Origin: Desulfuromonadaceae bacterium
GTDB lineage: Bacteria; Desulfobacterota; Desulfuromonadia; Geobacterales; Pseudopelobacteraceae
Direction of reading: 5' to 3'
NCBI GenBank assembly: GCA_049318985.1
Contig: JBMOEI010000031.1
Coordinates: 2,417-34,416, forward strand
Length of the DNA: 32,000 nucleotides
A program made the position numbers and the translations under genes. Positions 5,132 through 28,271 of the stretch are shown one piece after another. Numbering within the stretch: position 1 is the first letter of the stretch; every line of letters starts with the position of its first letter. The notes under the pieces were generated by a model. That model searched no databases. It saw only the letters and a program-made list of their open reading frames with translations, and was not told the DNA's origin.

Positions 5132-5214
5132 CGAAACCTCAACCATCAACCCGTGCGGGGACAGACACCCCCGTAAGGGTCGATCTGTCTCCGCACATTA
5201 CAAGGAGACAGTCC

Positions 5215-5733: not shown

Positions 5734-5746
5734 AAGGAGACTGACA

Positions 5747-6259: not shown

Positions 6260-6339
6260 TCTGAATCAATAACTTTCAACCCTATGGGGGCGGACACTGC
6301 CCTCGGGGTGGTCCGCCCTCAACATTTCAGGAGGCGGAC

Positions 6340-6831: not shown

Positions 6832-6839
6832 ATAATAAT

Positions 6840-6869
6840 GAGGGAGCGGCGCTTTGTGCGCCCTCCCTC
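6840..6869 (+). terminator. GC-rich stem-loop after radC (weak terminator)
   Basis: GAGGGAGCGGCGC-TTTGT-GCGCCCTCCCTC followed by GATTCTTCC (poor U-tract). Confidence 0.4.
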
Positions 6870-6882
6870 GATTCTTCCCCCA

Positions 6883-6941
6883 GCCCAAAAGGGTTCCTTA
6901 GAGCCACCGCCCAGCGGTGGTTGTAGGGAGCCCTTTTGGGC
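6883..6941. other. Nested (hairpin-within-hairpin) inverted repeat, possible structured RNA or protein-binding site
   Basis: Outer arms GCCCAAAAGGG(TTCC) at 6883..6897 pair with (GGAG)CCCTTTTGGGC at 6927..6941. The inner hairpin CCACCGC-CCA-GCGGTGG is at 6904..6920. Confidence 0.35.
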
Positions 6942-6971
6942 CACCATCACAACGATAAGGGGGATAGAGTC

Positions 6972-7109
6972 ATGTCAGTTCGAGCACGCATTAACGGTAG
7001 GGAATTCACACTGAGTTGGGAGGAGTTTGAAAAGGCGCTGCACAGGAGCAATCTTGCAGGCGGCGAATTTGAAGTTCTTGCCATTCTTTCGGGAGTGAAA
7101 CCCTACTAG
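6972..7109 (+). CDS. Small hypothetical protein (45 aa), not in ORF track
   Basis: ATG 6972 is preceded by AAGGGGGATAGAGTC. Translation: MSVRARINGREFTLSWEEFEKALHRSNLAGGEFEVLAILSGVKPY*. It is followed by two hairpins including a canonical terminator. Confidence 0.5.
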   Translation: MSVRARINGREFTLSWEEFEKALHRSNLAGGEFEVLAILSGVKPY

Positions 7110-7145
7110 AGTCTTCAGGCCGGATACCCGTCCGGCCTGGATAGA

Positions 7146-7176
7146 GGCGGCCCTTGTGGTCGCCTTTTTTATTTTT
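7146..7176 (+). terminator. Rho-independent terminator ending the plus-strand gene block
   Basis: GGCGGCC-CTTGT-GGTCGCC followed by TTTTTTATTTTT. It is preceded by a 9-bp-stem hairpin CAGGCCGGA-TACCCG-TCCGGCCTG (7116..7139). Confidence 0.75.
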
Positions 7177-7180
7177 ACAG

Positions 7181-7218
7181 CACAATAATCTAGCAGTGGC
7201 AAGACACAATAATCTAGC
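7181..7218. repeat. Two direct copies of CACAATAATCTAGC, 24 bp apart centre to centre
   Basis: Exact 14-mers at 7181..7194 and 7205..7218, in the AT-rich gap between the plus-strand terminator and the convergent hipA end. Confidence 0.6.
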
Positions 7219-7284
7219 TGGCGCATGAAATGTTCATGATGCCGTACTGATTAAGAGTGGGCTCTGACACTCTTGGTAGCGTGC

Positions 7285-8532: not shown

Positions 8533-8765
8533 GATTCGTCTCCTGGAGTTGCCCACGTACGGATACTCGCATCCAGCTCGATTCCGAGGCACTTGATGAC
8601 CTGCAGTACCTTGTTCAGGCGCACGGTCTCCTTGCCGTTTTCCAGAGCAGACAGAAAGGCATAACTTACGCCACAGACTGCAGCCGCATCTTCCAGGGTG
8701 AGGCCATCGTCTTTACGTTTCTGTTTGATGAGCCGTCCAATGTCTATTGCACTTGTAATCTTCAT
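8529..8765 (-). CDS. hipB: HipB-like XRE-family HTH antitoxin
   Basis: IGRLIKQKRKDDGLTLEDAAAVCGVSYAFLSALENGKETVRL is a Cro/C1-type HTH. There is a 4-nt overlap with hipA. Confidence 0.85.
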   Translation of the reverse strand: MKITSAIDIGRLIKQKRKDDGLTLEDAAAVCGVSYAFLSALENGKETVRLNKVLQVIKCLGIELDASIRTWATPGDES

Positions 8766-8790
8766 TTCAAAACCCTCTCCATAATATATG

Positions 8791-8845
8791 CGTTCGTATA
8801 TTTATAGCAGTTAGAATGAGACATTAACAGCAAAATATACGATCG
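8791..8845. promoter_or_regulatory. Candidate hipBA operator: inverted 13-mers CGTTCGTATATTT / AAATATACGATCG
   Basis: Arms at 8791..8803 and 8833..8845 (1 mismatch) lie 26-80 nt upstream of the hipB start. Each arm also sits within a local palindrome (AATATA-N8-TATATT; TACGATCGTA). Confidence 0.35.
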
Positions 8846-8966
8846 TAGATATGGAGACGCTATAAGCCAGCGGAACGGAAAATTATCTGCGTTTATAGAT
8901 GAGAGTACGGAGTATGAGGATTGAGTCAACTTGGTGGCGTAATCTGAAAGTGCAGCCATAAATTCA

Positions 8967-9404
8967 TCAGTGTACTTCAACCTGCTTAGCGGTACACATC
9001 CGGGTAGATATTTCACAGGGATGATCAGGCTGATCACGCCACCATTGCTTGTCTACGACAGAAGAGCAACCCCCATCTTCCAATAGCCCCTTGCGCCCAC
9101 TCTGATCGCACACGAGCACAACAGCATGACCGTTAACCCCTTGCGCTTTTAAGAGATATCCCACAAATGGCTCTTTCAGTCGTGGATCATGGCTGGTTGA
9201 AAAATCTACCAACTCCATATCCTTCATTTCTGCCGGTGCTTCCTTGAACAGCACTTTCTCTTCCACTGCTGTAGTCAATTTAGTAAGGGCAGAAGCCAGT
9301 GAGTACATTTCTTCTTTATCCGCAACGTTGTAATGGGCGCACCCGGAGCTGAAGATCAGCAGGGAAAACAGTATCAGCCGCACACCGATGTTGAATTTTT
9401 TCAT
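8967..9404 (-). CDS. Lipoprotein (145 aa)
   Basis: ORF-track 8967..9461, trimmed to MKKFNIGVRLILFSLLIFSSGCAHY, a signal peptide plus lipobox (FSSGC). The start is 3 nt after the stop of the upstream PLC-like gene. Confidence 0.7.
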   Translation of the reverse strand: MKKFNIGVRLILFSLLIFSSGCAHYNVADKEEMYSLASALTKLTTAVEEKVLFKEAPAEMKDMELVDFSTSHDPRLKEPFVGYLLKAQGVNGHAVVLVCDQSGRKGLLEDGGCSSVVDKQWWRDQPDHPCEISTRMCTAKQVEVH

Positions 9405-9406
9405 TA

Positions 9407-10336
9407 TTACCCCCAGAAAATGAGATTGTTTGCCTGATCCCTGCCGGTATCTAAATTCCACTCACCGAAACGCGCCAGAATTGTGTCGTTGCCGTTGAAT
9501 GTCCCACGCGCTATATCCGCCCATACTGTTGCTACATTGTCCACTGCCTCAGTGTAAATATCTGTATAACTCATGGTTCCGTTGGGAATCTTGAGGCCTT
9601 CAATATACTGTTTGTCTATCTGCCCGGGCAAAGGATAGACCATTCCTGAATCTGCTGCGAGATGTCGGGCAAAAGGAAATAGATGATTTCCTGCTGATGA
9701 TATTGTATCTACAATCTCATTGAACCGCTCATGCCACTTGTGAATGTCAGGAGGATTAGCGGCAAAAATATCCGGGTGGACAGCTTTCATCAAAGCACTC
9801 CAGAACGAGATAATGTCAGCATCCAGCTTATCGTCATCATCCGGTGCAGAGCATGCGCCAATACCTGATGCTAGATGGTCTGACACTCCAACCCCTCCAA
9901 GATCAAGCCTCTGGAAGATAAAGGCATCCTGGTGCATTTCACATACCCTGTGTTTCGTTTTATTCTCTTCATACGTGCCGACCTTGAGTTCGATTACCGG
10001 ATGAACCGTCATGTCTGCGGTAACATGCGAGGAGTACCCCAGCAGCCACGCCAGACATTTGTACTTCTTCTCTCCATCAATGGCTCGAAGCAACTTTGAG
10101 CCTTCCCGGACCATCGCTCCCGTGTGGGTGTAGTGCATCAGATCAGACCATTTTGCGGCATCGCTGTCATCTACAGCCAGGTACGGATAGTCAGGGCTTA
10201 CAGCTCCCAGTTCTGCAAACTTGAACCAGCGCAGGAATGCTTTTGATGCTTCTTTCGGAAAGTCAGGAATGGCAAGAAGCTTATCGGTGTTCCTGAATTC
10301 ATTAACTACCGATATATGCGCGTATGCTCCAGGCAT
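9407..10336 (-). CDS. Zinc-dependent phospholipase C-like family protein (no signal peptide)
   Basis: His/Asp pattern typical of the Zn-PLC/P1-nuclease-like superfamily: N-terminal MPGAYAHISV, GAVSPDYPY, LMHYTHTG, GYSSHVTADMTVHPVI, CEMHQDAF. The call comes from motif recall only. Confidence 0.55.
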   Translation of the reverse strand: MPGAYAHISVVNEFRNTDKLLAIPDFPKEASKAFLRWFKFAELGAVSPDYPYLAVDDSDAAKWSDLMHYTHTGAMVREGSKLLRAIDGEKKYKCLAWLLGYSSHVTADMTVHPVIELKVGTYEENKTKHRVCEMHQDAFIFQRLDLGGVGVSDHLASGIGACSAPDDDDKLDADIISFWSALMKAVHPDIFAANPPDIHKWHERFNEIVDTISSAGNHLFPFARHLAADSGMVYPLPGQIDKQYIEGLKIPNGTMSYTDIYTEAVDNVATVWADIARGTFNGNDTILARFGEWNLDTGRDQANNLIFWG

Positions 10337-11353: not shown

Positions 11354-12544
11354 TCAAATCAGGTCTCCACGAAATGCTTTATCCAGAATCGACGGCACCA
11401 TGGCATCCAGTTCGGTGGCAGTTTCGGTCTGGAGGCGTTTGAGGGAGTCAATCTTGGCTTGGAGGTTGTCCAGGTGGGTGACGATGTTGTGCTGTTCTTC
11501 AATTGACGGTAGCATAATGGGAAACTTTCTTATGGCTCCGATATTGAGATGAGGTGATGCTGAACCTTTAGAGAGCGGAACTATCTGATCTTGCTGAATA
11601 ATCGGCGAGAGCCATTGGTACAAAAGGAATTGCGGTAGAATTTTCCGGGAATCAGGGCGAACTTGCATAACTCTTTGCCCTAAGCTCATTTTATGACCTT
11701 CTTCAACAATGCCGGCTTTTCCGGTTCCTCCACCTTCTCGAACGATGATAATGTCTCCTGGTACAAGTTCTCCCCTCCGAGTTCGACGAAGGTACTCATC
11801 TTCACTTGTTCTCAAAGCTGTTTCGGGAAAAAGTTTGCCCCATCCTATATCCGGAGATCGGAGTGTTGGAATTCCCGAATCGGAATATATCGCGTTCGAG
11901 TGTAAACAATCGATTATGTCAGTGCAAAGCGATGCAAGCACTGCACTCCCATTATATTTCGACATAGAGAACAAGTTGCGGGACGTGCTGTGTAACAGCG
12001 CCTCCGTCTCCTCCACCGCATGCCGTCTGAGCCCCCGCGCCTCCTTAATCTTCGCCGTCAGCTCTTCAATCCGCGCAACAATGCACCGTTGTTCGGCCAG
12101 CGGTGGGAGGGATATTTCCATGGCAAGAAACTTCTCTTCTTTGAGGCGTACCCTGTTAGTTGTACCTTCACTGGCTGCCTTACAAAGTTCAACAAATCCT
12201 GATGTCTTGCTTAACCACTCTAGGAACTTCGGTGTAAGCCTTTCCTGATTCAAATCGAATGCCGGAAAATCATTACTGACAACCGCTCCATCAAGCATTT
12301 CAGGGACAAGACCAAAAGCACCGTTGCGGGCATCAATCCGCGAAAGTATGAACTGGCCTTGCCGGACAATGGCTCGCCGTGATGCCGTCATCTCTGTGCC
12401 AGAGACCTCACGGCGTAGCACAACACCCTTGCCCCAGAGTTTGATCGTCACTTCCCGATAAAAGGCATTTGGGTCAATAGAAACCAATTCCTCAGACTTC
12501 TTCAGCACCTCTCCAAGCGCCACCAGCGGCCACGCGCCACTCAT
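11354..12544 (-). CDS. hsdS: Type I restriction-modification specificity subunit HsdS
   Basis: Two target-recognition halves are separated by the conserved helical spacers LPPLAEQRCIVARIEELTAKIKEA and LPSIEEQHNIVTHLDNLQAKIDSL. The ATG overlaps the upstream stop (ATGA at 12541..12544). Confidence 0.9.
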   Translation of the reverse strand: MSGAWPLVALGEVLKKSEELVSIDPNAFYREVTIKLWGKGVVLRREVSGTEMTASRRAIVRQGQFILSRIDARNGAFGLVPEMLDGAVVSNDFPAFDLNQERLTPKFLEWLSKTSGFVELCKAASEGTTNRVRLKEEKFLAMEISLPPLAEQRCIVARIEELTAKIKEARGLRRHAVEETEALLHSTSRNLFSMSKYNGSAVLASLCTDIIDCLHSNAIYSDSGIPTLRSPDIGWGKLFPETALRTSEDEYLRRTRRGELVPGDIIIVREGGGTGKAGIVEEGHKMSLGQRVMQVRPDSRKILPQFLLYQWLSPIIQQDQIVPLSKGSASPHLNIGAIRKFPIMLPSIEEQHNIVTHLDNLQAKIDSLKRLQTETATELDAMVPSILDKAFRGDLI

Positions 12545-13380
12545 ACGCCCGTCATCCTGAGAAGTTCCGAGACGAAACCAACGACATCCGCCTGCATCTC
12601 CGCGTCCTCGGCCCCGGAGGCAAAAAGCGCCACCCGCATCGGTCCGAGTGCTCTTTCGTCAAGAAAATCCTCGCGAAGAATAGCGACAGCACGACGACCA
12701 GGGGCGGTTTCAATCAGGTGGCTAAAAAAAGCAGCGACGTCTTCCGTGCCGCTACCATAGTTTCTCGTCATGTAGTAAAGATCGTAGGCATCTTTGAATT
12801 TCCCGCGATTGCGGAACGCCAGCGCCTTCAGGATGACAAACGCACCTGGATTACACACGGGGATTTCACGCGATGCGGTTTCACCAAAAAGGGTCGTCCC
12901 GTCAAGCCTGACTCTAATCCGCTCACTAAATGCGATTTCAAGCCCCTCGATAATAAAAGCGGCCAGGCCCTTTTCGAGTGATTGTAATTTCCCTGGGACT
13001 GCCTCTTCATTGATCGGCGGAATAAGAAATTCTATTTTTGCTGACGGATTTCGCGTATGGGTCCAGCGCTGACGGACTTCATTCCCTTTATTACTGATGT
13101 CAGGGGTAAAACCCGAATCCCTCAAACGCTCCGCGATACCCTCGTACCGATGATCATCAAGAATTGCCAGATCAAGTCCAAGATCAAGATCCATCGTACC
13201 TACATGCGGTTCGGCTCCGATTGGGAGTGCTGTCGGAGGGATGAGGAGGCTGGGCACCAATCCTCCGACAACAACCAGATCATCCATATAATCGCCGAGT
13301 ATGGTCGCTGCCGTAAGGGTGGCGGCACGGATCAAGTCAGTCTGTTCGGGGGTATAGTCGGCGGCAGTGTGAAACGTCAT
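12541..13380 (-). CDS. AbiEii/AbiGii-family nucleotidyltransferase toxin-like protein (DUF1814-like)
   Basis: NTase-like VVVGGLVPSLL...HVGTMDLDLGLDL motif, size ~280 aa, paired with an upstream wHTH protein and overlapping it by 4 nt (13377..13380). Confidence 0.6.
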   Translation of the reverse strand: MTFHTAADYTPEQTDLIRAATLTAATILGDYMDDLVVVGGLVPSLLIPPTALPIGAEPHVGTMDLDLGLDLAILDDHRYEGIAERLRDSGFTPDISNKGNEVRQRWTHTRNPSAKIEFLIPPINEEAVPGKLQSLEKGLAAFIIEGLEIAFSERIRVRLDGTTLFGETASREIPVCNPGAFVILKALAFRNRGKFKDAYDLYYMTRNYGSGTEDVAAFFSHLIETAPGRRAVAILREDFLDERALGPMRVALFASGAEDAEMQADVVGFVSELLRMTGV

Positions 13381-14429
13381 GGGAACTCCAGATTTTTCCG
13401 CAACTCGGTAGCTGCTTCTTTAGCCCGTTCCGGGAGGGATTTCAGGTCAAGCCAGACCTGGATGCGATGAACACAAGGAATGTCGGCAACGGGTTGTATG
13501 CCGTAAAAGAGATCGGGGTCTTTCGGAATGATCAGCCAAACATTGGCTCCGGAGGTGTTTTCCCGGAAGCCGATCTGTTCCAGGATATGCTTGTCCGGCC
13601 ACTCTTTCAGATACATGGTAACAGTGCGAAACGCGGCAAACCTGGAATACAACCATGCAGCCCCCAGCCCGGTGGCGGCATGATCAACAGACAGACTTTT
13701 CAAGGTGCTGCTGATTTTCCCTTGAATCTCTTCCCCGGATCGTCCGGCCACATGGCCGCGCAGTATCTCATGCTTTGTGAAATCGTACCCTTGCTGCCAC
13801 GCATCCAGCATTACTTCTGACTTGGCGACAATGAGTTTCCCCTGATTGTCACGGGAGATAAGCTGCTGGGCTTCAAGTGATTTAACGATCCGGCTGACAA
13901 ATCCTTCCCCCAGACCTGTTTCGTCTGCCAGCTCCCGTTGCGTCCAGGCACGGTTTGTTTGATACAGCATGTGTCGGGCAATTCGCGAACTTTTCGGGGC
14001 AAAGGGATTTTCATTGCGCCCGGGGGAGATGAACTTGTTCTTTTCGCCACGGACGAAGAGACGGAGGCCGGGAGCGGTAATATCGGCATTGCCCGAGAGA
14101 TCCAGCCAGGAAACACCGGCCTCGGCGCACTTACCAATCCCGGTTTCTCCCATGAATGGTGTAACCAGCAGTCGAATATCGGAAGGTTTGGCGGGGTAGC
14201 GTATCAAATGCTCAATGCCGGCGGCAACAGAGCCAATCAGGGGTGATGACTTGTACTCAACTACGAACCGGAATCCACCTGCCTCCATAACAAGGTCTGG
14301 CCGGTATCTTTCGCTTTGCGGAGTACCTGTAAGAGGCTCGTAGTCAACCCTGTCGGCGCTAACACCGATGAGCTTCTCCAGCCGGTCTACCACCTGTTTC
14401 AACGCATTTTTCTCATGTTCAATCTTCAT
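13377..14429 (-). CDS. AbiEi-like antitoxin/transcriptional regulator with N-terminal PD-(D/E)xK-like module
   Basis: Central winged-HTH SRIARHMLYQTNRAWTQRELADETGLGEGFVSRIVKSLEAQQLI. N-terminal RPDLVMEAGGFRFVVEYKSS resembles a D...E-x-K nuclease-fold core. Genomic pairing with an AbiEii-like NTase. Confidence 0.5.
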   Translation of the reverse strand: MKIEHEKNALKQVVDRLEKLIGVSADRVDYEPLTGTPQSERYRPDLVMEAGGFRFVVEYKSSPLIGSVAAGIEHLIRYPAKPSDIRLLVTPFMGETGIGKCAEAGVSWLDLSGNADITAPGLRLFVRGEKNKFISPGRNENPFAPKSSRIARHMLYQTNRAWTQRELADETGLGEGFVSRIVKSLEAQQLISRDNQGKLIVAKSEVMLDAWQQGYDFTKHEILRGHVAGRSGEEIQGKISSTLKSLSVDHAATGLGAAWLYSRFAAFRTVTMYLKEWPDKHILEQIGFRENTSGANVWLIIPKDPDLFYGIQPVADIPCVHRIQVWLDLKSLPERAKEAATELRKNLEFP

Positions 14430-14512: not shown

Positions 14513-16048
14513 TCAATCTACTACACCCTTGGCAAGTACCAGCCGGATCTCGCCCATGATCTCAAGTATTCGCTGCTCTTTCCTGACAATATCTTCTACC
14601 AGCCGCTCCGGCGGCAGATGTTCGAAGTCATCTTTGCCGGTGGGATTCTTGATGTCCAGGTTGTAGCCGTTCTCGATGATCCGCTCTACCGGCACCCGCC
14701 AGGCGTGCTCGTTCTCCTCCTTGTTGTTCCACCATGACAGGCAATCGGCAAATTCCTCGAACTGGACCGGCTGGGTCTTGGTGTAGTTCTTCCGCCCTTC
14801 CGGCAATGGCTGTTCATAGTACCAGACCTCTTTGGTCGGCCCGGAACGGTCGAAGAAAAGGAGGTTGGTGGGGATACCGGTATACGGGGCAAAAACGCCA
14901 TTGGGCAGACGCACTATGGTATGCAGGTTGAAATCTTTGATCAGTCGTTCCTTGATTCGCCCGCAGATGCCGTCGCCGAAGAGCATGCCATTGGGGACGA
15001 CCACTCCGGCTCGGCCAGGTTTGGGTTGGCGTTTGAGCTTGCGCATGATCATCTGGAGAAAGAGCAGCGTCGTCTCCGAGGTCTGCATCTCGGCGGGAAA
15101 GTTGTTGAGAATCCCTTTCTCTTCTTCACCACCAAATGGGGGATTAGTCAGGATGACATCCACTCGATCCCGGTCGCCAATCTCATTGAGCGGAAAGCGG
15201 AGGCTGTTATCCGGGTCGATTCTGGGGAATTCCAGCCCGTGCAGCAGCAGGTTCATCTGCACCAGCAGATAGGGGAGCGGCTTGGCTTCGCCGCCATAAA
15301 TGCTGCTTCCCTGGAGAATATTGCGCTCTTCAACGGTCGTGCACTGCTTCTCCAGGTGGCTGTAGGTCTCCACCAGAAAACCGCCAGTGCCGCAGGCCGG
15401 GTCAAGGATGGTTTCACCCAATTGGGGATTGAGGACATCGACCATGAAGCGGACAACCGGGCGAGGGGTATAGAATTCTCCCGCATCACCGGCTGCATCG
15501 CGCATCTCCTTGAGCATGGATTCGTAGAGGTGGCTCAGGGTGTGAATTTCGTCAGACGAAGTAAAGTGGATGCCGTTGACCTTGTTGATCACGTCCCGCA
15601 ACAGGTAGCCATTGATCATCCGGTTGATGGTGCCTTTGAAGACGGTGGCGATGACATCCCGCCGGTCGCCGCCGTTGATCCCCTGGAGGCCGCGCAGATA
15701 GGCGAACAGCCCTGCGCCCCTGGTTCCATCCGGACGGACCGCTTCATCGTTGTTGACGAAAGCTATCAATTCATCGCCGGTTATGCCGTCTTCCCGTGCG
15801 GCCCAGTCGCGCCAGCGATACGGTGCCTCAATTGCCGGTCGGAACTTCTCACCGGAAAGGATCGCTTCTTCCTCCCGAATTCGCTCCATGTCATCGAGGA
15901 ATTTGAGGAACATGATCCAAGTAAGTACGGGGAGCCGGTCGATGTCGCCGGAAAGCCCCTTGTCCTTGCGCATGATGTCGCGGGATGATTTTACGATAGA
16001 GCCAAGTTGTTGGGCGGTTGATAATGAGTTTATGGTTTTGCGTGACAT
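14513..16048 (-). CDS. hsdM: Type I restriction-modification N6-adenine DNA methyltransferase HsdM
   Basis: HsdM N-terminal domain (LPVLTWIMFLKFLDD), SAM motif I ILDPACGTGGFL, and catalytic motif IV VILTNPPFGG. Confidence 0.95.
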   Translation of the reverse strand: MSRKTINSLSTAQQLGSIVKSSRDIMRKDKGLSGDIDRLPVLTWIMFLKFLDDMERIREEEAILSGEKFRPAIEAPYRWRDWAAREDGITGDELIAFVNNDEAVRPDGTRGAGLFAYLRGLQGINGGDRRDVIATVFKGTINRMINGYLLRDVINKVNGIHFTSSDEIHTLSHLYESMLKEMRDAAGDAGEFYTPRPVVRFMVDVLNPQLGETILDPACGTGGFLVETYSHLEKQCTTVEERNILQGSSIYGGEAKPLPYLLVQMNLLLHGLEFPRIDPDNSLRFPLNEIGDRDRVDVILTNPPFGGEEEKGILNNFPAEMQTSETTLLFLQMIMRKLKRQPKPGRAGVVVPNGMLFGDGICGRIKERLIKDFNLHTIVRLPNGVFAPYTGIPTNLLFFDRSGPTKEVWYYEQPLPEGRKNYTKTQPVQFEEFADCLSWWNNKEENEHAWRVPVERIIENGYNLDIKNPTGKDDFEHLPPERLVEDIVRKEQRILEIMGEIRLVLAKGVVD

Positions 16049-16096: not shown

Positions 16097-17089
16097 TTAC
16101 TTTTTAGTCGCTAAATTGATAGACATAATAAAAGAGGTCACAGCTTCAGCGCTATTATCAGCAGTGGGGTCAGAATCTGGGACCAGAGTGCTTTCTACTA
16201 AAATCGAACCACCATGTAATTCAATAATTGAATTCGCAACTGCCAATCCAAGTCCTGTGCCTCCTGAGTAAGTTGTATAAAATGGTTGAAAAATCCGCCT
16301 GGAATAGATGTCGTCCTTTGGGATGTATTTGCCGATATTACTTACTTTTACAAATGCCGATGACCCAACCCGATACACATCTATTTCTATGGGATACTTC
16401 GAATTGCCAAATTGCTGGGCATTAATAATCATATTAAGAATGACTTGGCTAAGTTGGTGGGTATCACCAAATATCTCGCACTGACTCATGTGCTGATTTA
16501 ATTGGATCTCATAGCGGTTATTTGTATCATTCACCAAATTATAGGCCTCATTAACAATCTGCAAAAGATTAACTCGCGAAAAACCAACCGGTAATGCTGT
16601 GATGCTGTATATCTGCGGCATAATCGCTAAGATAAGCTTTTGTACTCCAGCCTCCAAATCTGGGAATAAGTCTACGCGATGTATCTCCGCTAACATCGGA
16701 TGTTGAGGTTGACAGTCATCAAGTCGCACAGGGAGAAGATATATTTTATCAGGAGGCATTGTTTCCATTACCTCAATGGCCTGGCGCAGTTCTTTCTGCA
16801 CTACACCTCGTTTATTAACTGCATGATTTGACATCAACGCTATGAACAAATCAGATTGTATAATTGCCTTCGTGATTTCCTGTTTCCAATTTTGCCCTGG
16901 TTGAAGAGATTCTTCATCAAACCATATATATACAAGCTTATTTAGCCTTTTGAGGACACGATAAAGCTCTCTTGCCGAGTCGATGTCTTCTCTAGCATAG
17001 CTAAGAAATATTTGTTTCCTTTCGGGTATCATCACGTGATCTGACAGACCATCTAACCTCGTGAGCATATCCTGTAAATTGTTTGCCAT
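16097..17089 (-). CDS. TIR domain fused to histidine-kinase-type HATPase_c (GHKL) domain, no DHp/H-box
   Basis: N-terminal half: KQIFLSYAREDIDSARELYRVLKRL...WFDEESLQPGQNW...DLFIALMS...VVQKELRQA is a TIR_2-type pattern with the conserved Glu (E100). C-terminal half: N-box VILNMIINAQQFG, F-box IFQPFYTT, G2-box GGTGLGLAVANSIIELHGGSILVES. No HisKA phospho-acceptor His region lies between them. Confidence 0.75.
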   Translation of the reverse strand: MANNLQDMLTRLDGLSDHVMIPERKQIFLSYAREDIDSARELYRVLKRLNKLVYIWFDEESLQPGQNWKQEITKAIIQSDLFIALMSNHAVNKRGVVQKELRQAIEVMETMPPDKIYLLPVRLDDCQPQHPMLAEIHRVDLFPDLEAGVQKLILAIMPQIYSITALPVGFSRVNLLQIVNEAYNLVNDTNNRYEIQLNQHMSQCEIFGDTHQLSQVILNMIINAQQFGNSKYPIEIDVYRVGSSAFVKVSNIGKYIPKDDIYSRRIFQPFYTTYSGGTGLGLAVANSIIELHGGSILVESTLVPDSDPTADNSAEAVTSFIMSINLATKK

Positions 17090-17158
17090 TTTTATAACCT
17101 TTCAGATTAACGGCATTATGGTTACTGGATTCCCGTTATAGACAACCTGTGTTGACAA

Positions 17159-18790
17159 TCATCGGTCGCCGCGCCAGTCGGGAGTGTGAAAGCCATCAAG
17201 GAAGCGTGAGCGAACCGCAACAAAGGAATCCTTTCCAACATTAGACCCACGTTGGGCCATGTCCTCAATTGCTTCCACGTCGTCAAGCTTGATTTCACAA
17301 AGCGTCTGCTGATTTACCCTCAGATGGCGAGCTGGACTCAAAAAACTGTCTGCTAGTTCGGTAGCCGCGTGCTCCTGTGCCGCAAAAAAAAGATCGGCGC
17401 TTGTCGGTGCCCATCCTACTTTTCCTTTGCCTAGGGACTCTGTGAAATCGGTTTCATTACACATCGTTCCGATGCTCAAGACATCAATTCGATCAAGCGG
17501 TATTTTGAGGTGACGAACCGCCTCAGCTATTGCAGGCAATACTGGATTGTTTGCCCAAATTCCGCCATCAAGATAACTCTCAACCGATATTGCATTGTCA
17601 ACTATTGCTTCATCAAAGTATGTTGGTGCGGCAGAAGATGCTAGAGCTGCATCTACGGCGGATATTGCCGCAAATGCAGTCCGGTCGCGACAGTGAGCAG
17701 TTACAATAGCCTCTGCTTCACCATGGTTTGCCCTCACAGTAGGGAGCACTAGCCTACAGAGAGAATCCTGCGTTAGTATGCGATCTCCAAACACCGATTG
17801 AAGCGTCTCTCGTAGAGTTTGAGATTCATGCTTGGATTTCAGCCAGTGGCGCAGTTTGCGGTTTTTGGGGAATATCTTAGGCCCTTGCGTTCGATAAAAG
17901 GAAAGCATTTCAGCTGGGGTTAGACCGAGGCCGAGGCCTATGGCGAGAATCGCACCTGTAGATGTACCCGCAACAAGATCGAAATGTTTTACTAATTGGT
18001 TCCCGCCACCACTCTTTATCATATCGTCCCACTTAGCGAGGACAGCAGCGGTAAAGGTGCCTCGTAGGCCGCCGCCATCAAGCGCCAGGATTCGAAATAG
18101 GCGCCCACTAGAGATACTCTCTCGTGCCAGTGGAAGTAACTTTAGCTGAGATATTATTGTGCCCACAAGCTCATCAACAACAGTGCACGTAGCAAATGCT
18201 CGATTCTGCTGTTCAGAAAGACCGTTGCGCAAACGACAAAACACAGTCTCGTCATCTCTTACGTAACCTTCAATGGCCCCACCAAACCCCGCTACTGCAA
18301 ACCCAGATTTTCCACGGGCCAAGGTTTCTTCCAATTCAGCCGGAACTCCAGCGCGAGGTTTGTTGATGTCATACCATTTCCCACCTACTGCGACGACAAC
18401 ATCACATCTTTCAGCCATCCATTGCCTCATGGGAACTAAGCTTTCATCAGGTCTGTTACAGATAGATGGAATGATCTGAACAGCAGCGTATTCACGTTGA
18501 TCTTCAATATTTGCAAGTTGTTCAGCTGTGGCAGAAAACTTCTGGGTACGAACAAAAGTAAGCGCATCCTTCCGACCGCCTGACTCAACAAACTGCTTAG
18601 CGGAATTTTCAAGCGGATCTTGGAGAGTTGGGTGGCTGCCGTGAATAATGGTACCTCCCTCCCTGAATACAGCTTGACTAAGCCTCTGAACAAATAGTTG
18701 AATCGCTTTTGCCTGTTCAATAGAAGCGTTATCGTGAATAGCCCCGGAAATATGGACTCTTATGCCAAGCAGCGGAAGACGAGTTGTCAT
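17159..18790 (-). CDS. SLOG/STALD-like (LOG-type Rossmann) domain fused to patatin-like phospholipase
   Basis: Residues ~8-215 (IRVHISGAI...REGGTIIHGSHPTLQDPL...CDVVVAVGGKW...AGVPAELEETLARGKSGFAVAGFGGA) fit the SLOG/LOG Rossmann pattern. Residues ~232-445 carry the full patatin set: oxyanion DGGGLRG (238-244), nucleophile GTSTG (Ser277), and catalytic YLDGG (Asp408). Confidence 0.75.
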   Translation of the reverse strand: MTTRLPLLGIRVHISGAIHDNASIEQAKAIQLFVQRLSQAVFREGGTIIHGSHPTLQDPLENSAKQFVESGGRKDALTFVRTQKFSATAEQLANIEDQREYAAVQIIPSICNRPDESLVPMRQWMAERCDVVVAVGGKWYDINKPRAGVPAELEETLARGKSGFAVAGFGGAIEGYVRDDETVFCRLRNGLSEQQNRAFATCTVVDELVGTIISQLKLLPLARESISSGRLFRILALDGGGLRGTFTAAVLAKWDDMIKSGGGNQLVKHFDLVAGTSTGAILAIGLGLGLTPAEMLSFYRTQGPKIFPKNRKLRHWLKSKHESQTLRETLQSVFGDRILTQDSLCRLVLPTVRANHGEAEAIVTAHCRDRTAFAAISAVDAALASSAAPTYFDEAIVDNAISVESYLDGGIWANNPVLPAIAEAVRHLKIPLDRIDVLSIGTMCNETDFTESLGKGKVGWAPTSADLFFAAQEHAATELADSFLSPARHLRVNQQTLCEIKLDDVEAIEDMAQRGSNVGKDSFVAVRSRFLDGFHTPDWRGDR

Positions 18791-18846
18791 TGCATCCTCT
18801 TTTCTTGTGGTTCAAACGTTGGGTTCGCATTCGTACTGTAGATATT

Positions 18847-19446
18847 TTACCAGCCCGCGAGCCCAGCAGCTGTCTCGATCCATCCGCCGATGTTCTGGCG
18901 TCCATTCTGTGCCGTAAAATCATAGCTCATACAGTGATTTGAAAGTTGTACGACATTGTTGTCACTTGGGGCGGTAAACCATAGATCGCTCTCCGGAATA
19001 GCGAGTGTGTAATCGTCGTATTTAATCCATTTGCCGCTCTTCCACTCGGCAAGGTAAATTCCCTTTTCAGTTCTATATACACCCATCTGCGCCAGTGGGT
19101 CAGCGCCTTTCACAGCGACTACTCCATCCTTGTTCTTTACACCATGTATATAGACTGTCAATAACCCGTTGCCCTTGATTAGGCTGCGGGCGATTTCGTA
19201 TCTGACCCAGCGCCGACTCCAAGTGTCAGTACCCGAGAGTACACAAGTCACAGAGGTATTTTTTACCCCATCTCGGAGGAAAGCCTTGAGAGAGTCATCA
19301 CTTTCTTTTTTGGAAGCTTCGAATACGCTACTATCGAAAAAACCAATGCTGGCCTGATCCTCTGCCTTGACTACCCAGCAATTGCGAACATTCCAAGCAC
19401 GCCAGACGTCGGGTACGTAGTGAAACGAAAAAAAAGTTCTTCTCAT
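18847..19446 (-). CDS. thsB: ThsB-type TIR-like protein (DUF1863/Thoeris ThsB family)
   Basis: MRRTFFSFHYVPDVWRAWNVRNCW...NTSVTCVLSGTDTWSRRWVRYEIARSLIKGN. The FFSFHY, VRN, NTSVTCVL and RRWVRYEI blocks match the ThsB hallmark blocks as I recall them from Bacillus cereus ThsB, including the catalytic Glu (here E84). RBS GGAG upstream. Confidence 0.8.
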   Translation of the reverse strand: MRRTFFSFHYVPDVWRAWNVRNCWVVKAEDQASIGFFDSSVFEASKKESDDSLKAFLRDGVKNTSVTCVLSGTDTWSRRWVRYEIARSLIKGNGLLTVYIHGVKNKDGVVAVKGADPLAQMGVYRTEKGIYLAEWKSGKWIKYDDYTLAIPESDLWFTAPSDNNVVQLSNHCMSYDFTAQNGRQNIGGWIETAAGLAGW

Positions 19447-19574
19447 TTTGTCTCCGTTATTTTCATGGGGGTATAACGTCTAAAGGGTTAGCTGTGGCGA
19501 AGCCAACTGCTTGAGGGTCTGCTGTGTAGCGTAGCGGAAACAGCAGTACCTAAGTGTTAGGCATTTCGGCAAGA

Positions 19575-20261
19575 TTATCGGGGCTCTTCACCTTCTATTC
19601 TTGCCTTTATTAATCCTGCAAATAGACTTGAAGAAGGCCAACGGAGTTCAAAACTATTTGCGGCTTCTTCAAGTGTTGTTAACAAGGATTCCGTATCATC
19701 ATAAAAAATTTCGACTGTAGTATATTTCCCATTTTCAAGAAGCTTTATACCGTAACTCGTCTCTGTATTAGCCGACTCAGTCATTCTTTTGATTGCACTT
19801 GATAATTGTGCCATATACAAATCGGCTCTTTTTTCCCCCGGCAAGTCAGCTGGTATCCATCCTTCTTTATCATCACCGTACTCGAAAGACACTCTTCTGA
19901 TTACATCATTGGCATCGTGCGGCAGAGGGTCGCACTCATAAGTGAGCTTATCATTTGTGTCTAAATTAATGAGGGTCGTAATCAATATGGGCACTTTGTG
20001 CCCTTGTTTTTCGGAGATATTTCTTGACAACAACATTTCTCTAGCAAATGGTAACAATTTTAACTTATCTTGAAACTTTCCATATTCTCTCTCATATCCT
20101 TCTTTGTGCGCGTATAAGCTCTGCATCGCAAAGGTTGCACTTCTGGTCGCCGACAGTAGCGCGGAAAAATTAAAACAAAATTCCTCACTCGCAAGTTTTA
20201 GACCGCGTAGTTCATTCAAAAAATACCTTGCCTCTTTTATTTTGTATGATGGGTACATCAC
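19575..20261 (-). CDS. Hypothetical protein (228 aa), AT-rich, first gene of the insert between hsdR and hsdM
   Basis: ORF-track entry MMYPSYKIKEARYFLNELRGL... with RBS CAGGAGAAA upstream. I recognise no motif. Confidence 0.5.
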   Translation of the reverse strand: MMYPSYKIKEARYFLNELRGLKLASEEFCFNFSALLSATRSATFAMQSLYAHKEGYEREYGKFQDKLKLLPFAREMLLSRNISEKQGHKVPILITTLINLDTNDKLTYECDPLPHDANDVIRRVSFEYGDDKEGWIPADLPGEKRADLYMAQLSSAIKRMTESANTETSYGIKLLENGKYTTVEIFYDDTESLLTTLEEAANSFELRWPSSSLFAGLIKARIEGEEPR

Positions 20262-20293
20262 TTTTTCTCCTGTGTTTGCCTAACTCATTGCTG

Positions 20294-20325
20294 ACCGTTT
20301 CACGCGCACATGCGCGTGAAACGGT
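20294..20325. promoter_or_regulatory. 32-bp near-perfect palindrome ACCGTTTCACGCGCA-CA-TGCGCGTGAAACGGT
   Basis: 15-bp perfect arms read directly from the sequence, located 33-64 nt upstream of the 228-aa gene start and ~250 nt downstream of the hsdR stop. The outer half-sites GTTTCAC/GTGAAAC equal the two halves of a canonical parS. Confidence 0.5.
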
Positions 20326-20577
20326 GATCTTCCCAGGTTTTTTTGTCTGCGCACAATGAACTACCCCGCAGCAAGCTACGAGGTATCACGACGGTAATTT
20401 ATTTTTCAACGAAGCGAGCTTCGAGGAATTTACCCGAAGAGATTAAAACGACACATCAGTTGATTAAGTTTTCAGTAAAACGGTCACCTCAAAACACATT
20501 TCGCCAACATCACACCTCTTGATATACGAATCTAATTCGCGCCAGGCGAGATTGATCGTGACATCCGTATTCCTGCA

Positions 20578-22953
20578 TTAAAACCCCGCATAGAGCAGCG
20601 TCTGTAGTTCATTCACCGCTTCCCGCAGATTTTCCGCTCCACCAAAATACCCGGCAATCTCAATCACATTCCCACGCCCAGATATTGGCGGCACTTTCAA
20701 GATGTCCGGTACCACAAATTGTGCCGTACCATGTTGGGCGTATTTCTCCAGCAGTTCTTCAAGTATGGCCCTGGCCTCGGGGCCGTAGTGATCGAAGAAA
20801 TCCTTCCGGTCATGCTTAAGGCGTTCAGCCCGCTCGCGGCGAGTTCGTAACGGCGCATTGAAGGCCAGGTGACAGAGCAGATCAAAGTGGTCAGCTTCTG
20901 GTTGCCCAACGGAGTCTGCCAGCTCATTAAAGTTGATACCACGCTCCTCAAGCTGGCGGATAACTTCGGCCCGTTCCTTTGGATTGGCCCACTGTTCTCG
21001 CATCCGAATAGCACCGGTGAACAGAGTACGAACCTTGTCAGCGGCATAGTCGCTGTATTTGACGACACGGAGCTGCTTGCCGTCTGGATCCAGTTCATAA
21101 ACCAGATGGGCGGCAATCGCCACCTGTCCGCCATCGACATAGTACTTGCGGGGTTCTTTTGTGACGTCATCAATGACAACCCCTGCCGGGCCGTAGTCAT
21201 CCTGAACGCCGCCATCTTCCACAACGGGAGCTTCCTCAATAATGGTCGTTTCGTAGGTGGCGCCACTCGTATCAATCTTCTCTTCGCTGACCAGAGCCGG
21301 ATCCCCGTCGAAATCACTATCGGCAAAGAGCCTTGTGGCACTGCCGGTATAATCGAGGATGCTGAACCAGAGCTTGCCGTAATCGTCCCTGACACGGGTG
21401 CCACGGCCAATAATCTGTTTGAACTCCGACATGGAGCCAACCACGCGGGCCAGGACGATATTTTTACAGGTAGGGGCATCGACGCCGGTGGTCAGCATCT
21501 GTGAGGTGGTAAGGATGGCTGGGGTCTCGGTCTCCAGTTCCTGAAACCTGCCGAGATGCCCACGACCTATATCGCCCTCATTCGAAGTCACCCGGCAGAC
21601 GTAATCCGGGTACTGGCTTACCAGATCCTGGTTAAGGTTGGTGAGTGCCCGTCGCATCTCGTCCGCATGATCCTGATCCACGCAAAATACGATGGTCTTG
21701 GCAAAACGGTCAGTCTTTCTCAGAAAGTCATTCAGGTGACAGGCAATAGCCTCGGTACGGGCCTTTAGAGCGACAACCCGCTCAAAATCCTTGGTCTGGT
21801 ACTCCTCGTCCGGTATCTCCCGGCCATAGCGATCCAGCTCTCCCTTGCTGGGACGCCAACCTGCAGCATCAAAGTCAGTGATAATGCGGTGGACCCGGTA
21901 CGGCGCCAGGAAACCGTCGTCTATCCCCTGCCGCAAGCTGTACTGGTAGATGGGGTTGCCAAAGTAGAGGTAGGTATCCCGGTTGTCTTCCCTGAGCGGG
22001 GTAGCGGTCATCCCCAACTGAAACGCCGGAGAGAAATACTCCAGGATCTCCCGCCAGTTGCTGTTGTCGCGGGCGCTTCCCCGGTGGCATTCATCAACTA
22101 TGATCAGGTCGAAGAAGTCCGGCCGGTACTCCTTATAGAGCCCCGGTCGCCGTTCGTCCTTGGCCAGCGACTGGTAGATGGCGAAATACATCTCACGGCT
22201 TTTGTTGGCCTCGCCATTCTCGATCTTCCAGCGGGCATCGCCGAAGGGAGCAAAGATCTTATCCTTGGGGTCATCGACCAGAATATTACGATCAGCAAGG
22301 TACAGAATTTTGGGGCGCCGATGCTCGCCGGTTGCATTCCAGCGGGCGCTCCAGAGTTTCCAACAAATCTGGAAGGCGACTACGGTTTTGCCGGTGCCGG
22401 TGGCCATGGTCAGCAGGATTCGTTTATTGTCCTGCAAAACCGACTGCACAACCCGGTTGATGGCGATTTCCTGATAATAGCGAGGACTCTTGCCGCTGTG
22501 GTGGTAATAAGGTGAAAGAATGCGTTGCGCGGATTCGGGGGAGAATGCCTGAGAGCTTTGCAGTCGCTGCCAAAGTTCCTCTGGTGGCGGGAACTCCGTC
22601 AATACTCGCTCCTGGCCGGTCATATAATCAAACTCGATGATTTCTATGCCGTTAGTGGCATAGGCAAACTTGATACCCAGAATCTCAGCGTACTCTTTAG
22701 CCTGCTGTATACCATCCCCGGCTGACAGGTAATCTGGTTTGGCCTCTACAACGGCTATGAGATAATCACGGGTATAGCGAAGCAGGTAGTCGGCCCGTTT
22801 CTGGGGACGACGCCTCACCTTGTTCCCAGCAAGAACAATACGGCCATCGGTAAAGGTAATTTGCTCGTTGATACGGTGGGGCTCGTTGTCCCAACCCGCC
22901 TCAACCAGCTTCGGCAGCACGTATTTTCGGCAGGTATCTGCTTCGTTGCTCAT
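20578..22953 (-). CDS. hsdR: Type I restriction enzyme endonuclease/translocase subunit HsdR
   Basis: N-terminal HsdR nuclease region (MSNEADTCRKYVLPKLVEAGW, ADYLL...VVEAK), Walker A LTMATGTGKT, DEAH-box IIVDECHRGS, motif III GMTATP, motif VI QIIGRGTR. Confidence 0.95.
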   Translation of the reverse strand: MSNEADTCRKYVLPKLVEAGWDNEPHRINEQITFTDGRIVLAGNKVRRRPQKRADYLLRYTRDYLIAVVEAKPDYLSAGDGIQQAKEYAEILGIKFAYATNGIEIIEFDYMTGQERVLTEFPPPEELWQRLQSSQAFSPESAQRILSPYYHHSGKSPRYYQEIAINRVVQSVLQDNKRILLTMATGTGKTVVAFQICWKLWSARWNATGEHRRPKILYLADRNILVDDPKDKIFAPFGDARWKIENGEANKSREMYFAIYQSLAKDERRPGLYKEYRPDFFDLIIVDECHRGSARDNSNWREILEYFSPAFQLGMTATPLREDNRDTYLYFGNPIYQYSLRQGIDDGFLAPYRVHRIITDFDAAGWRPSKGELDRYGREIPDEEYQTKDFERVVALKARTEAIACHLNDFLRKTDRFAKTIVFCVDQDHADEMRRALTNLNQDLVSQYPDYVCRVTSNEGDIGRGHLGRFQELETETPAILTTSQMLTTGVDAPTCKNIVLARVVGSMSEFKQIIGRGTRVRDDYGKLWFSILDYTGSATRLFADSDFDGDPALVSEEKIDTSGATYETTIIEEAPVVEDGGVQDDYGPAGVVIDDVTKEPRKYYVDGGQVAIAAHLVYELDPDGKQLRVVKYSDYAADKVRTLFTGAIRMREQWANPKERAEVIRQLEERGINFNELADSVGQPEADHFDLLCHLAFNAPLRTRRERAERLKHDRKDFFDHYGPEARAILEELLEKYAQHGTAQFVVPDILKVPPISGRGNVIEIAGYFGGAENLREAVNELQTLLYAGF

Positions 22954-22961
22954 AGATTACC

Positions 22962-23009
22962 CGATAAAGAAAAAGCCGTTTGTCAGCACTTGAGCAGACA
23001 ATGCGGCTT
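22962..23009 (-). terminator. Terminator-like hairpin plus U-tract abutting the hsdR start codon (insulator or attenuator)
   Basis: Minus-strand reading: AAGCCG-CA-TTGTC-[12-nt loop]-GACAA-A-CGGCTT followed by TTTTTCTTTAT, then CGGGTAATCT-ATG(hsdR). Confidence 0.45.
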
Positions 23010-23084
23010 CAGTTGGAACAATATGTCCTAAAGGGCACAGAGCCCATCTCTTTACCCTCCATAAATGCATGAAATTACGACATG

Positions 23085-23113
23085 TTAATACCTCTTTTCA
23101 CCCTCAAAGTCAA
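23085..23113 (-). promoter_or_regulatory. Candidate sigma70-type promoter for hsdR
   Basis: Minus strand: TTGACT (23113..23108), a 17-nt spacer, then TATTAA (23090..23085). This would give a ~125-nt leader containing the hairpin above. Confidence 0.4.
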
Positions 23114-23293
23114 TTTGATATGGCACCTGTACATTCCTACCGACAAAGAACGCTATTAGAGAACCCTGTCCTATCAGAACAGAGTGCTGCAACATGCTGT
23201 AATTTTTGTATTTACAGTTGACATTTGATATTAAGCTGGCCAAACTGACGTTGAAAAACTGACTATTTTGACTGTCGAGAAAGGAGGGAGGAC

Positions 23294-23608
23294 ATGATAA
23301 AAAAAATTGCAGCAATCTTCATTGCGGTTGCAGGAACTGTTCTCCCATGCCTACTTGCGGGAGCGGTGGTTGGGCTTATGTTTATATCGAGTTTCTGGAT
23401 ATGGGCTCTCGGGTTGACGACTATTTCGTTCCCCTGGATGCTCATGAACCGGGTGCATACCCGATTTTACCATGGGTACCTTAACGGAAAAACTTTATTT
23501 GAGAACTTGAAATACGCCTACACAAGTACTGAATATTATCCAACAACATCTCTCTTCGGTGCTTCATGGTGGAATTGGTACTGGGGATTTTTTAGACGAC
23601 ATTTCTGA
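23294..23608 (+). CDS. Small membrane protein (104 aa, two predicted TM helices, Trp/Tyr-rich tail)
   Basis: ORF-track entry with strong RBS AAAGGAGGGAGG. Hydrophobic stretches: IAAIFIAVAGTVLPCLLAGAVVGLMFI and FWIWALGLTTISFPWML. Confidence 0.55.
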   Translation: MIKKIAAIFIAVAGTVLPCLLAGAVVGLMFISSFWIWALGLTTISFPWMLMNRVHTRFYHGYLNGKTLFENLKYAYTSTEYYPTTSLFGASWWNWYWGFFRRHF

Positions 23609-23624
23609 TGACAGAAGTGATAGC

Positions 23625-23942
23625 TCATGAAGGTGCATAGGAATATTCCCATGCCCCTTTTATTTTGAGGAGTTCATCGCGACTTATTTCAACCCCGCCG
23701 ACAAATGGTGCAACGATGGCATACGGAGATGATTGGTAAAAATATACATTCGTACCATCTGCCCGTTCTAAATGCTCAAGGATCGCAACCGGAAGATTGA
23801 TCACACAGCTTCCTATCCGCAAATCAGCCCCATGCTCTTGAACATATAGTGAAATTGACGTGTCATGGTTGTCCGGCAAAGAAAATGTATCAGTTGCAAT
23901 GACTATTATTCCATCTGATACCAAGAGAATCTTATCCAACAC
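23625..23942 (-). CDS. Hypothetical protein (105 aa) immediately downstream of traG
   Basis: GTG start at 23942 with GAGGAGG upstream, 3 nt after the traG stop. No recognised motif. Confidence 0.45.
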   Translation of the reverse strand: MLDKILLVSDGIIVIATDTFSLPDNHDTSISLYVQEHGADLRIGSCVINLPVAILEHLERADGTNVYFYQSSPYAIVAPFVGGVEISRDELLKIKGAWEYSYAPS

Positions 23943-23945
23943 GAA

Positions 23946-28263: not shown

Positions 28264-28271
28264 GACGCCCC

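Follow-up and report, generated by a model that had tools for sequence, protein, structure and literature searches.

We analysed a 32,000-nucleotide stretch of DNA (the window) from contig JBMOEI010000031.1 of a Desulfuromonadaceae bacterium and found that one of its genes, here called TIR-CA (Table 1), encodes a TIR enzyme domain joined to the ATP-binding half (the CA domain, HATPase_c) of a histidine kinase. This architecture is rare, uncharacterised and conserved, and the gene moves between genomes as a single gene, without an obligate partner. The reading that we tentatively favour, and to which we assign a little less than an even chance, is that TIR-CA may be a self-contained, mobile, single-protein TIR NADase gated by its nucleotide-binding CA domain.

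Pfam assigns TIR_2 to residues 27–153 of the TIR-CA protein (E = 1.1e-24; 87.7 bits against a cutoff of 28) and HATPase_c to residues 208–301 (E = 1.9e-15; 57.7 bits against a cutoff of 26.4), and it gives no HisKA match at E < 0.1. The AlphaFold2 model (mean pLDDT 87.1, pTM 0.67) consists of a TIR fold (residues 25–161), a low-confidence linker (residues ∼162–170) and the alpha/beta sandwich of the CA domain (residues 171–326). Only about nine linker residues separate the TIR helix 145–161 from the CA strand at residue 171, and nowhere does the model show a helical hairpin of the kind expected for a DHp, the phospho-acceptor module. Sequence matches in the PDB begin at residue 166 or 170, extend to residue 300 and cover CA domains only (ZraS, 2.7e-17; ThkA, 1.4e-11; also HK853), and the CA domain therefore starts immediately after the TIR domain. 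The top PDB matches of the model in Foldseek are histidine-kinase CA domains as well, and the nearest NCBIfam models, AtoS, ZraS and VanS, match the protein in its CA region alone. A cryptic HisKA domain is thus ruled out by Pfam, by the PDB alignment boundaries and by the AlphaFold2 model. The original prediction, made from the sequence alone, had named the TIR_2 and HATPase_c domains and had noted the missing phospho-acceptor module; all of this holds in the Pfam profile check, in which the first two profiles matched and HisKA did not, and both AlphaFold2 and Foldseek agree.

An AAAGG Shine–Dalgarno-like motif lies 5' of the TIR-CA start codon. Comparison with a 95.6%-identical copy in another locus (L107; L and P numbers are our handles for loci and proteins) gives a ratio of nonsynonymous to synonymous substitution rates (dN/dS) of 0.33 overall, with 0.25 for the TIR half and 0.46 for the CA half. 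A chance open reading frame (ORF) is ruled out by the E-values given above, by about 30 homologous clusters (see below) and by this dN/dS. The hsdR, hsdM, hsdS and TraG genes of the window were identified from their translations and the other ORFs by a Pfam scan; among the window ORFs scanned or recognised in this way, there is no receiver, STAS, HisKA or sigma-factor gene. The negative result for response regulators applies to the window. The protein is thus not a classical kinase, as the original prediction had stated, since DHp/HisKA is absent and no response regulator was found among the window ORFs.

The TIR half retains a putative catalytic glutamate, Glu100 (VVQKELRQA), the residue that had been singled out from the sequence. 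Glu100 is invariant in the TIR-CA family, is conserved at 90% or more over 58 aligned TIR proteins, and pairs in a phmmer alignment with the Glu of NKREGVLKEL in the SPARTA TIR-APAZ chains. We count the latter as residue 77 and take it to be the catalytic Glu of TIR-APAZ. By sequence, the SPARTA TIR-APAZ chains are also the nearest solved TIRs (PDB), and the best PADLOC matches of the TIR half are SPARTA TIR-APAZ and SAVED-TIR, both NAD-depleting effector TIRs; PADLOC matches of the protein to ThsB are weak, 1e-5 at best. Because the catalytic Glu is invariant, an enzymatic rather than an adaptor function of the TIR domain is indicated.

In the CA half, the N-box (ILNMIINAQ), the F-box (FQPFYTT) and the G2 box (GTGLGLAV) are intact and canonical in alignments. 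The G1 box reads S250-N251-I252-G253-K254-Y255, whereas all 19 aligned histidine-kinase homologues have D-x-G-x-G, confirming the manual alignment from which the loss of the adenine-contacting Asp had been proposed. Within the close clade (an alignment of eight sequences), Asn223 of the N-box, Gly253 of G1 and the GxGLGL of G2 are all invariant. Our motif survey took in 35 TIR-CA proteins, 27 without a DHp and eight with one, and nearly all of them retain Asn223. The G1 Asn is found in 24 of the 27 DHp-less members; one has Asp, and the position is degenerate in two.

The same substitution is known from working kinases that bind nucleotide. ThkA, whose structure was solved with ADP-Mg (PDB), has WNSGPPIP in its G1 region, and its Asn forms a hydrogen bond with adenine (Grasty et al., PMC10017428). 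VanSA and VanSC also have a G1 Asn and no second Gly, as do ThkA and the TIR-CA protein; VanS CA domains bind ATP, only at low-millimolar affinity, and another kinase with an Asn in G1 is reported to favour GTP (PMC10017428). This Asn does not represent decay: it characterises the family, the other pocket residues are conserved in the close clade, and ThkA and VanS carry the same variant. The original prediction had spoken of altered or lost ATP binding. Judged from these alignments, an altered nucleotide affinity or specificity is plausible, but a loss is not implied by an Asn that 24 of 27 members, ThkA and VanS share.

A word-indexed search of 5.8 billion proteins returned only seven other full-length TIR + HATPase_c homologues, and about 30 clusters with full-length matches emerged when 1.84 billion cluster representatives were searched exhaustively with a profile. 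Only 2 of 80 metagenomic loci encoding close TIR relatives carry the CA domain. No full-length copy was found in 72,556 plasmids, 50,697 phages or IMG/VR, the last giving TIR-only matches, and no near-identical DNA was found in plasmid or E. coli collections. PADLOC has no model that covers the CA half, and neither PADLOC nor the literature that we searched for TIR, HATPase_c and defence describes a TIR-CA or TIR–histidine-kinase fusion; in the Aravind NAD-ADPr survey, histidine kinases appear only in another context. The earlier remark that no characterised defence system was known to have this fusion is borne out by these searches.

The TIR-CA protein is not an isolated oddity, as judged from relatives that carry a DHp with the H-box His. 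Eight members (the metagenomic proteins P0254, P0260, P0261, P0264, P0267, P0272 and P0301, and the product of L041 297-1454) are 75–90 residues longer between the TIR and CA domains, and the insert holds H-box-like motifs with a His. P0264 aligns through DHp and CA with SrrB and HK853 (FFHELRTPI against VSHELRTPI), and P0272 gives a weak HisKA match. These inserts, together with the P0264 alignment and the P0272 match, indicate that complete TIR-DHp-CA kinases exist, and two of them, P0254 and P0264, already have the G1 Asn. TIR-receiver fusions are found as well (P0040 and P0099), with a TIR ∼50% identical to that of the TIR-CA protein; alongside the TIR-DHp-CA proteins, they hint at a TIR-linked two-component network. 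A single TIR-CA origin with one loss of the DHp is attractive but unproven, because generic NtrB-class kinases give the CA domain of the TIR-CA protein higher scores than most other members of the family do; the fusion of TIR and CA may have happened more than once.

By blastn, the TIR-CA ORF and 35 bp upstream of it form a block of their own, distinct from a neighbouring block of two genes, ThsB and SLOG-patatin, and from the backbone that follows (Table 1). The region is thus a mosaic of independently exchanged blocks, and its GC content is 0.40 in TIR-CA, 0.48–0.49 in the ThsB + SLOG-patatin pair and 0.55–0.56 in hsdR and hsdM. The original prediction had treated the gene as part of a cassette. 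A conserved three-gene cassette of ThsB, SLOG-patatin and TIR-CA is ruled out by the block boundaries (16098-17124 and 17170-19455). The gene is not co-conserved with its neighbours: the L107 copy has other flanks, the pair occurs without TIR-CA, and none of the eight other family contexts (L001, L002, L006, L007, L008, L009, L027 and L041) has a SLOG or ThsB neighbour. What is found next to the gene in other family contexts is a Y1 transposase, VapBC, an HSDR_N fragment, an EEP protein, a CAP12-type TIR or DUF772. No repeats were found at the cassette junctions, and the window holds no second copy of the hsdR 3' end.

The SLOG-patatin protein is predicted to be a signal-activated phospholipase effector. 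Besides its Patatin domain, it has weak SLOG matches (LD_cluster2 and STALD), a PADLOC match to a CBASS-type phospholipase effector (4e-77) and, at the N-terminus, a weak NCBIfam match to ThcA of type III Thoeris. The ThsB of the window resembles a TIR of P. veronii R4 for which a SLOG-patatin partner is listed. 'SLOG Patatin' is one of 29 putative Thoeris types, and two ThsB + SLOG-patatin two-gene constructs gave no defence in E. coli (bioRxiv 10.64898/2025.12.03.692087, Table S2). By its sequence, the pair in the window matches this predicted, unvalidated type.

In the gated single-protein NADase that we favour, the N-terminal TIR with its retained catalytic Glu would be the output and would cleave NAD+, and the C-terminal CA domain, of the NtrB/ZraS class, would act as a nucleotide-binding regulatory or sensor switch. 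Without a DHp, the protein cannot autophosphorylate a histidine. Nucleotide occupancy or a phage-derived cue would instead alter the CA domain, the altered CA domain would allow TIR–TIR association, and the associated TIRs would begin to cleave NAD+, with growth arrest or abortive infection as the outcome. Cross-talk with the ThsB + SLOG-patatin pair would be possible but not required. Single-protein TIR systems are known to protect E. coli (PMC11350192). We infer the NADase activity, the nucleotide binding, the gating step and the role in defence from the conserved motifs, the resemblance to effector TIRs and the setting of the gene.

Several points weigh against this reading. To our knowledge, histidine-kinase CA domains do not drive oligomerisation alone. 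One subclade (P0253, P0257, P0258, P0262, P0265 and P0280) has degenerate G1 and G2 boxes, so that nucleotide binding cannot be a property of the whole family. The homologue contexts are mostly short metagenomic contigs, in which partners farther off could be missed. In the window, TIR-CA begins 69 bp past the SLOG-patatin stop, on the same strand and without a terminator-like site between them, and several TIR or TIR-like genes are typical of a SLOG-patatin locus.

The last two observations favour a rival reading, which we regard as possible but distinctly less probable, in which TIR-CA is an accessory ThsB: its CA domain would sense infection, its TIR would make an ADPR-derived signal that is bound by SLOG and activates the patatin, and the system would gain a wider phage range. 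Among the loci with several TIRs, L011 and L012 have two extra TIR_2 genes each, and L015-L020 and L024 have a TIR_2 gene directly 3' of SLOG-patatin; in L010 and L013, a TIR-related HET-domain gene occupies the same slot. HET is a cell-death domain related to TIR and best known in fungi. Type III Thoeris likewise combines multiple TIRs with a SLOG effector (bioRxiv 10.64898/2025.12.03.692087), and the failure of the two-gene constructs in E. coli leaves room, speculatively, for a missing component. The idea of a shared accessory TIR slot 3' of SLOG-patatin looked strong at first but is weakened because the downstream TIRs of L015-L019 and L024 are type III Thoeris ThcB4 proteins, translationally coupled to a SLOG partner of their own, ThcA, with both proteins above the NCBIfam equivalog cutoffs; this suggests that these are composite loci with two SLOG proteins and at least two TIRs. 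Moreover, the window is the only family context with a SLOG neighbour, the L107 copy at 95.6% identity has different flanks, and the pair occurs at 91.5% identity without TIR-CA. Five signature strings of the clade (e.g., SYARED and KRGVVQ) have no match among the entries listed in the accessible part of the Thoeris TIR table, and a TIR that makes only a signal would be without an effector in other genomes. A more radical coupling to the pair, in which the CA domain would hold ATP or another nucleotide in its low-affinity Asn-type pocket and present it to the TIR active site, the TIR would add ADP-ribose and the new conjugate would be read by SLOG-patatin, has a slim chance of being correct. 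It is modelled on plant TIRs, which make ADPr-ATP, and on type II Thoeris TIRs, which make His-ADPR; in a variant, the pocket would read cellular ATP and the TIR would fire when a phage collapses the energy charge.

The conserved Mg-ATP pocket motifs would also suit a kinase or partner switch that acts in trans, comparable to SpoIIAB and RsbW, with the CA domain binding or phosphorylating a partner (a protein of the host or of a phage, its own TIR or another kinase's DHp) and the TIR serving as regulated output or docking domain. P0008 and several relatives have weak HATPase_c_2 and HATPase_c_5 matches, TIR-DHp-CA relatives have the H-box His (FFHELRTPI in P0264, HELRTPI in SrrB), the TIR-receiver fusions P0040 and P0099 exist, and DivL (PMC4211667) provides a precedent for a repurposed kinase output domain. 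We nevertheless consider this unlikely: the TIR-CA protein itself has no HATPase_c_2 match at E < 0.1, the window ORFs include no recognised STAS, receiver or HisKA gene, the invariant columns reveal no obvious His, Ser or Thr acceptor, and the CA domains of the histidine-kinase class are not known to phosphorylate Ser or Thr. The eight TIR-DHp-CA proteins and two TIR-receivers, which belong to the same TIR clade, could further be taken to mean that the TIR is a homotypic interaction module of a two-component-like signalling network outside immunity, the copy in the window being truncated, regulatory or dominant-negative, and many homologue contexts are not evident defence islands. This, too, is improbable, given the invariant catalytic Glu, the wealth of defence genes on the mobile element in the window, and the predominance of DHp-less over DHp-bearing forms (27 to 8), with the DHp-less form under purifying selection. 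That the gene is a decaying, non-functional remnant of a TIR–histidine kinase left after loss of the DHp is hardly credible. The missing DHp, non-canonical G1, low GC content and patchy distribution would fit it, but some 27 divergent clusters retain an intact ORF, dN/dS against the L107 copy is 0.33, the pocket motifs and the G1 Asn are conserved rather than randomly mutated, and the AlphaFold2 model is confident.

The single-protein NADase that we prefer has its closest parallels in single-protein TIR effectors (SPARTA TIR-APAZ, TIR-SAVED and the E. coli systems), which likewise combine an N-terminal TIR_2 bearing the Glu with a fused non-TIR domain; TIR-CA is also solitary in most contexts, with variable, unrelated neighbours. 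It differs from TIR-APAZ and TIR-SAVED in having CA as the fused domain and in having no Argonaute or CD-NTase partner. With Thoeris ThsB, it shares a TIR with the Glu and a position beside a SLOG effector in a same-strand run, whereas its family is not co-conserved with any SLOG effector and its PADLOC similarity to ThsB is weak; we know of no report of a CA domain in ThsB proteins. The CA domain resembles those of the NtrB, AtoS and ZraS histidine kinases (ZraS over residues 166–300; 25–28% identity in Foldseek) and has a short ATP lid, but in contrast to classical sensor kinases, the protein has no DHp/HisKA, no phospho-acceptor His and no sensor or transmembrane region. The two marks of DHp-less GHKL Ser kinases such as SpoIIAB and RsbW, a HATPase_c_2 match at E < 0.1 and a STAS or sigma partner among the window ORFs, were both not found.

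SARM1, a TIR NADase of animals, is controlled by an allosteric domain that binds nucleotide, its ARM repeats. The concept is analogous, a TIR NADase restrained by a fused domain that reads a nucleotide, but the regulatory fold is unrelated, and any binding of NAD+, NMN or ATP by the CA domain of TIR-CA is hypothetical. Detocs is a two-component-like anti-phage system in which a complete kinase (HisKA + HATPase_c) passes phosphate by a phosphorelay to a receiver-effector. Like Detocs, TIR-CA may use histidine-kinase machinery in phage defence, but it has neither a phospho-acceptor nor a receiver partner.

TIR enzymes have a central place in the immunity of bacteria, plants and animals, and how these enzymes are switched on is the least understood step. 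TIR-CA offers a compact, one-protein system for asking whether the active site of a TIR can be gated, or supplied, by a nucleotide pocket, and the DHp-less and TIR-DHp-CA forms provide a natural series for the conversion of a phosphorelay module into an NADase regulator. The locus shows TIR modules being shuffled gene by gene inside a type I restriction-modification (R-M) operon on a conjugative element, and it points to a component that the 'SLOG Patatin' Thoeris type may be lacking. If the substrate-presenting idea were true, the TIR-DHp-CA/TIR-receiver family would connect two-component phosphorylation with TIR immune signalling for the first time; if TIR-CA is just another TIR-X abortive-infection toxin, the gain would be modest, one new sensor domain.

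Between positions 22953 and 11354, every gene is on the minus strand, and the order is hsdR, 228-aa gene, ThsB, SLOG-patatin, TIR-CA, hsdM, HTH + AbiEii and hsdS. The type I R-M operon is broken twice by defence cargo, between hsdR and hsdM and between hsdM and hsdS. TIR-CA is thus surrounded by defence genes (the R-M operon, AbiE and the Thoeris-like pair), all carried by a conjugative element. The flanks (1-10336 and 23946-32000) also carry a DnaG-type zinc-ribbon protein, TrbC and TraU. With ParB, RadC, HipA, the Zn-dependent phospholipase C, TraG, TrbC and TraU in its flanks, the R-M/TIR region is cargo of an F-type conjugative element. Its closest relatives are metagenome-assembled genomes (MAGs) of Desulfocapsa and Desulfuromonadaceae.

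Table 1. Features of the window; positions are counted from its first nucleotide
Feature	Position	Strand	Basis or remark
TIR-CA gene	16097..17089	(-)	ORF, 330 aa, ATG start; TIR_2 + histidine-kinase-type HATPase_c (CA), without DHp
TIR domain, aa 25-161	16607..17017	(-)	Pfam TIR_2 27-153 and secondary structure of the model
Glu100 codon (GAA), putative catalytic Glu of TIR	16790..16792	(-)	read in the sequence; family-invariant; pairs with TIR-APAZ Glu77
CA (HATPase_c) domain, aa 171-326	16112..16579	(-)	Pfam; PDB matches ZraS, ThkA, HK853; NCBIfam
Asn223 codon, second (Mg-coordinating) Asn of N-box NxxxNA	16421..16423	(-)	alignments; role per PMC10017428
Asn251 codon, in place of adenine-contacting G1 Asp (N-I-G-K-Y against D-x-G-x-G)	16337..16339	(-)	alignments
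Single-gene mobile block, TIR-CA ORF + 35 bp upstream	16098..17124	.	blastn, 95.6% to L107; both flanks unrelated
Two-gene block, ThsB + SLOG-patatin	17170..19455	.	blastn, 91.5% to L010 and L013 (Desulfocapsa MAG), where a HET-domain gene follows
Backbone up to 228-aa gene	19504-30455		86-94% to L108; other cargo beyond
SLOG-patatin protein, 543 aa, predicted signal-activated phospholipase effector	17159..18790	(-)	Patatin E 1.4e-26
ThsB-type TIR protein, 199 aa	18847..19446	(-)	Pfam ThsB_TIR 6e-25; PADLOC ThsB1 1.6e-53
228-aa protein, weakly lambda Ea47-like, element backbone	19575..20261	(-)	no Pfam/PADLOC match of its own; homologues carry PF26900
hsdR, type I restriction subunit, start of interrupted R-M operon	20578..22953	(-)	translation; L108 counterpart has ResIII/EcoEI_R_C
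hsdM, type I methylase, begins 48 bp past TIR-CA stop	14513..16048	(-)	NPPFGG motif; N6_Mtase in homologous L011, L012
HTH (AbiEi-like) + AbiEii pair between hsdM and hsdS	12541-14429	(-)	AbiEii and HTH Pfam matches
hsdS, type I specificity subunit, parted from hsdM by HTH + AbiEii	11354..12544	(-)	translation
ParB	2627-3457		conjugative-element feature
RadC	6340-6831		conjugative-element feature
HipA toxin	7285-8592		conjugative-element flank
Zn-dependent phospholipase C	9407-10336		conjugative-element flank
TraG, 1199 aa	23946-27545		conjugative-element feature

The 228-aa gene was considered as a partner of TIR-CA and rejected, as it is part of the backbone common to L108, with which homology ends at 19504. 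It has a GC content of 0.396 and is kept beside hsdR in L108 and L109, whatever cargo comes next. The intergenic region between hsdR and this gene contains a perfect 15-nt inverted repeat (20294-20325; ACCGTTTCACGCGCA / TGCGCGTGAAACGGT, with a 2-nt spacer), and a terminator-like hairpin lies nearby at 20362-20385.

In L108, a contig of a Desulfuromonadaceae MAG with the common conjugative backbone, the hsdR 3' end is found again as a 146-bp copy ∼9.8 kb downstream (9620-9770 and 19466-19611); the counterpart in the window is 20568-20713. The copy comes after the alternative cargo of L108 (DUF8370/8371, MC3 and LmuB_C), which appears as if bracketed by the duplicated hsdR end.

Among the SLOG-patatin loci, L011 and L012 are likewise embedded beside hsdR, hsdM and hsdS. 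In L010 (3712-5163) and L013 (3636-5099), the HET-domain protein that holds the position of TIR-CA has 483–487 aa. The loci with ThcB4 and ThcA come from Achromobacter, Acidovorax, Advenella and Stenotrophomonas; in L018 (7001-10423), for example, SLOG-patatin is followed by ThcB4 and then by an overlapping ThcA. Saltatorellus ferox Poly30 has another kinase-fold–TIR fusion (L021 9568-11007, minus strand), a 479-aa protein in which a PfkB-family sugar/nucleoside kinase is joined to TIR_2; its gene and a SLOG-patatin gene of the opposite strand are ∼0.9 kb apart.

In L027, a LOG-family gene fragment (3146-3451, minus strand; PGGxGTxxE), opposite in strand to the solitary TIR-CA gene and ∼600 bp away from it, is the sole SLOG-superfamily neighbour seen outside the window and is probably a housekeeping LOG.

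The same TIR is also found in 322-aa proteins with an unrelated C-terminal half, encoded in L003 and L004 (P0064 in both) and in L005 (P0056). Genes for the 322-aa TIR proteins (P0064 and P0056) are always directly 5' of a gene for a HEAT/nSTAND3-like protein of ∼1100 aa, which in L003 is followed by ThiF and YukD (ubiquitin-like) genes. Judged from this gene content, the three loci may represent a distinct TIR-STAND system.

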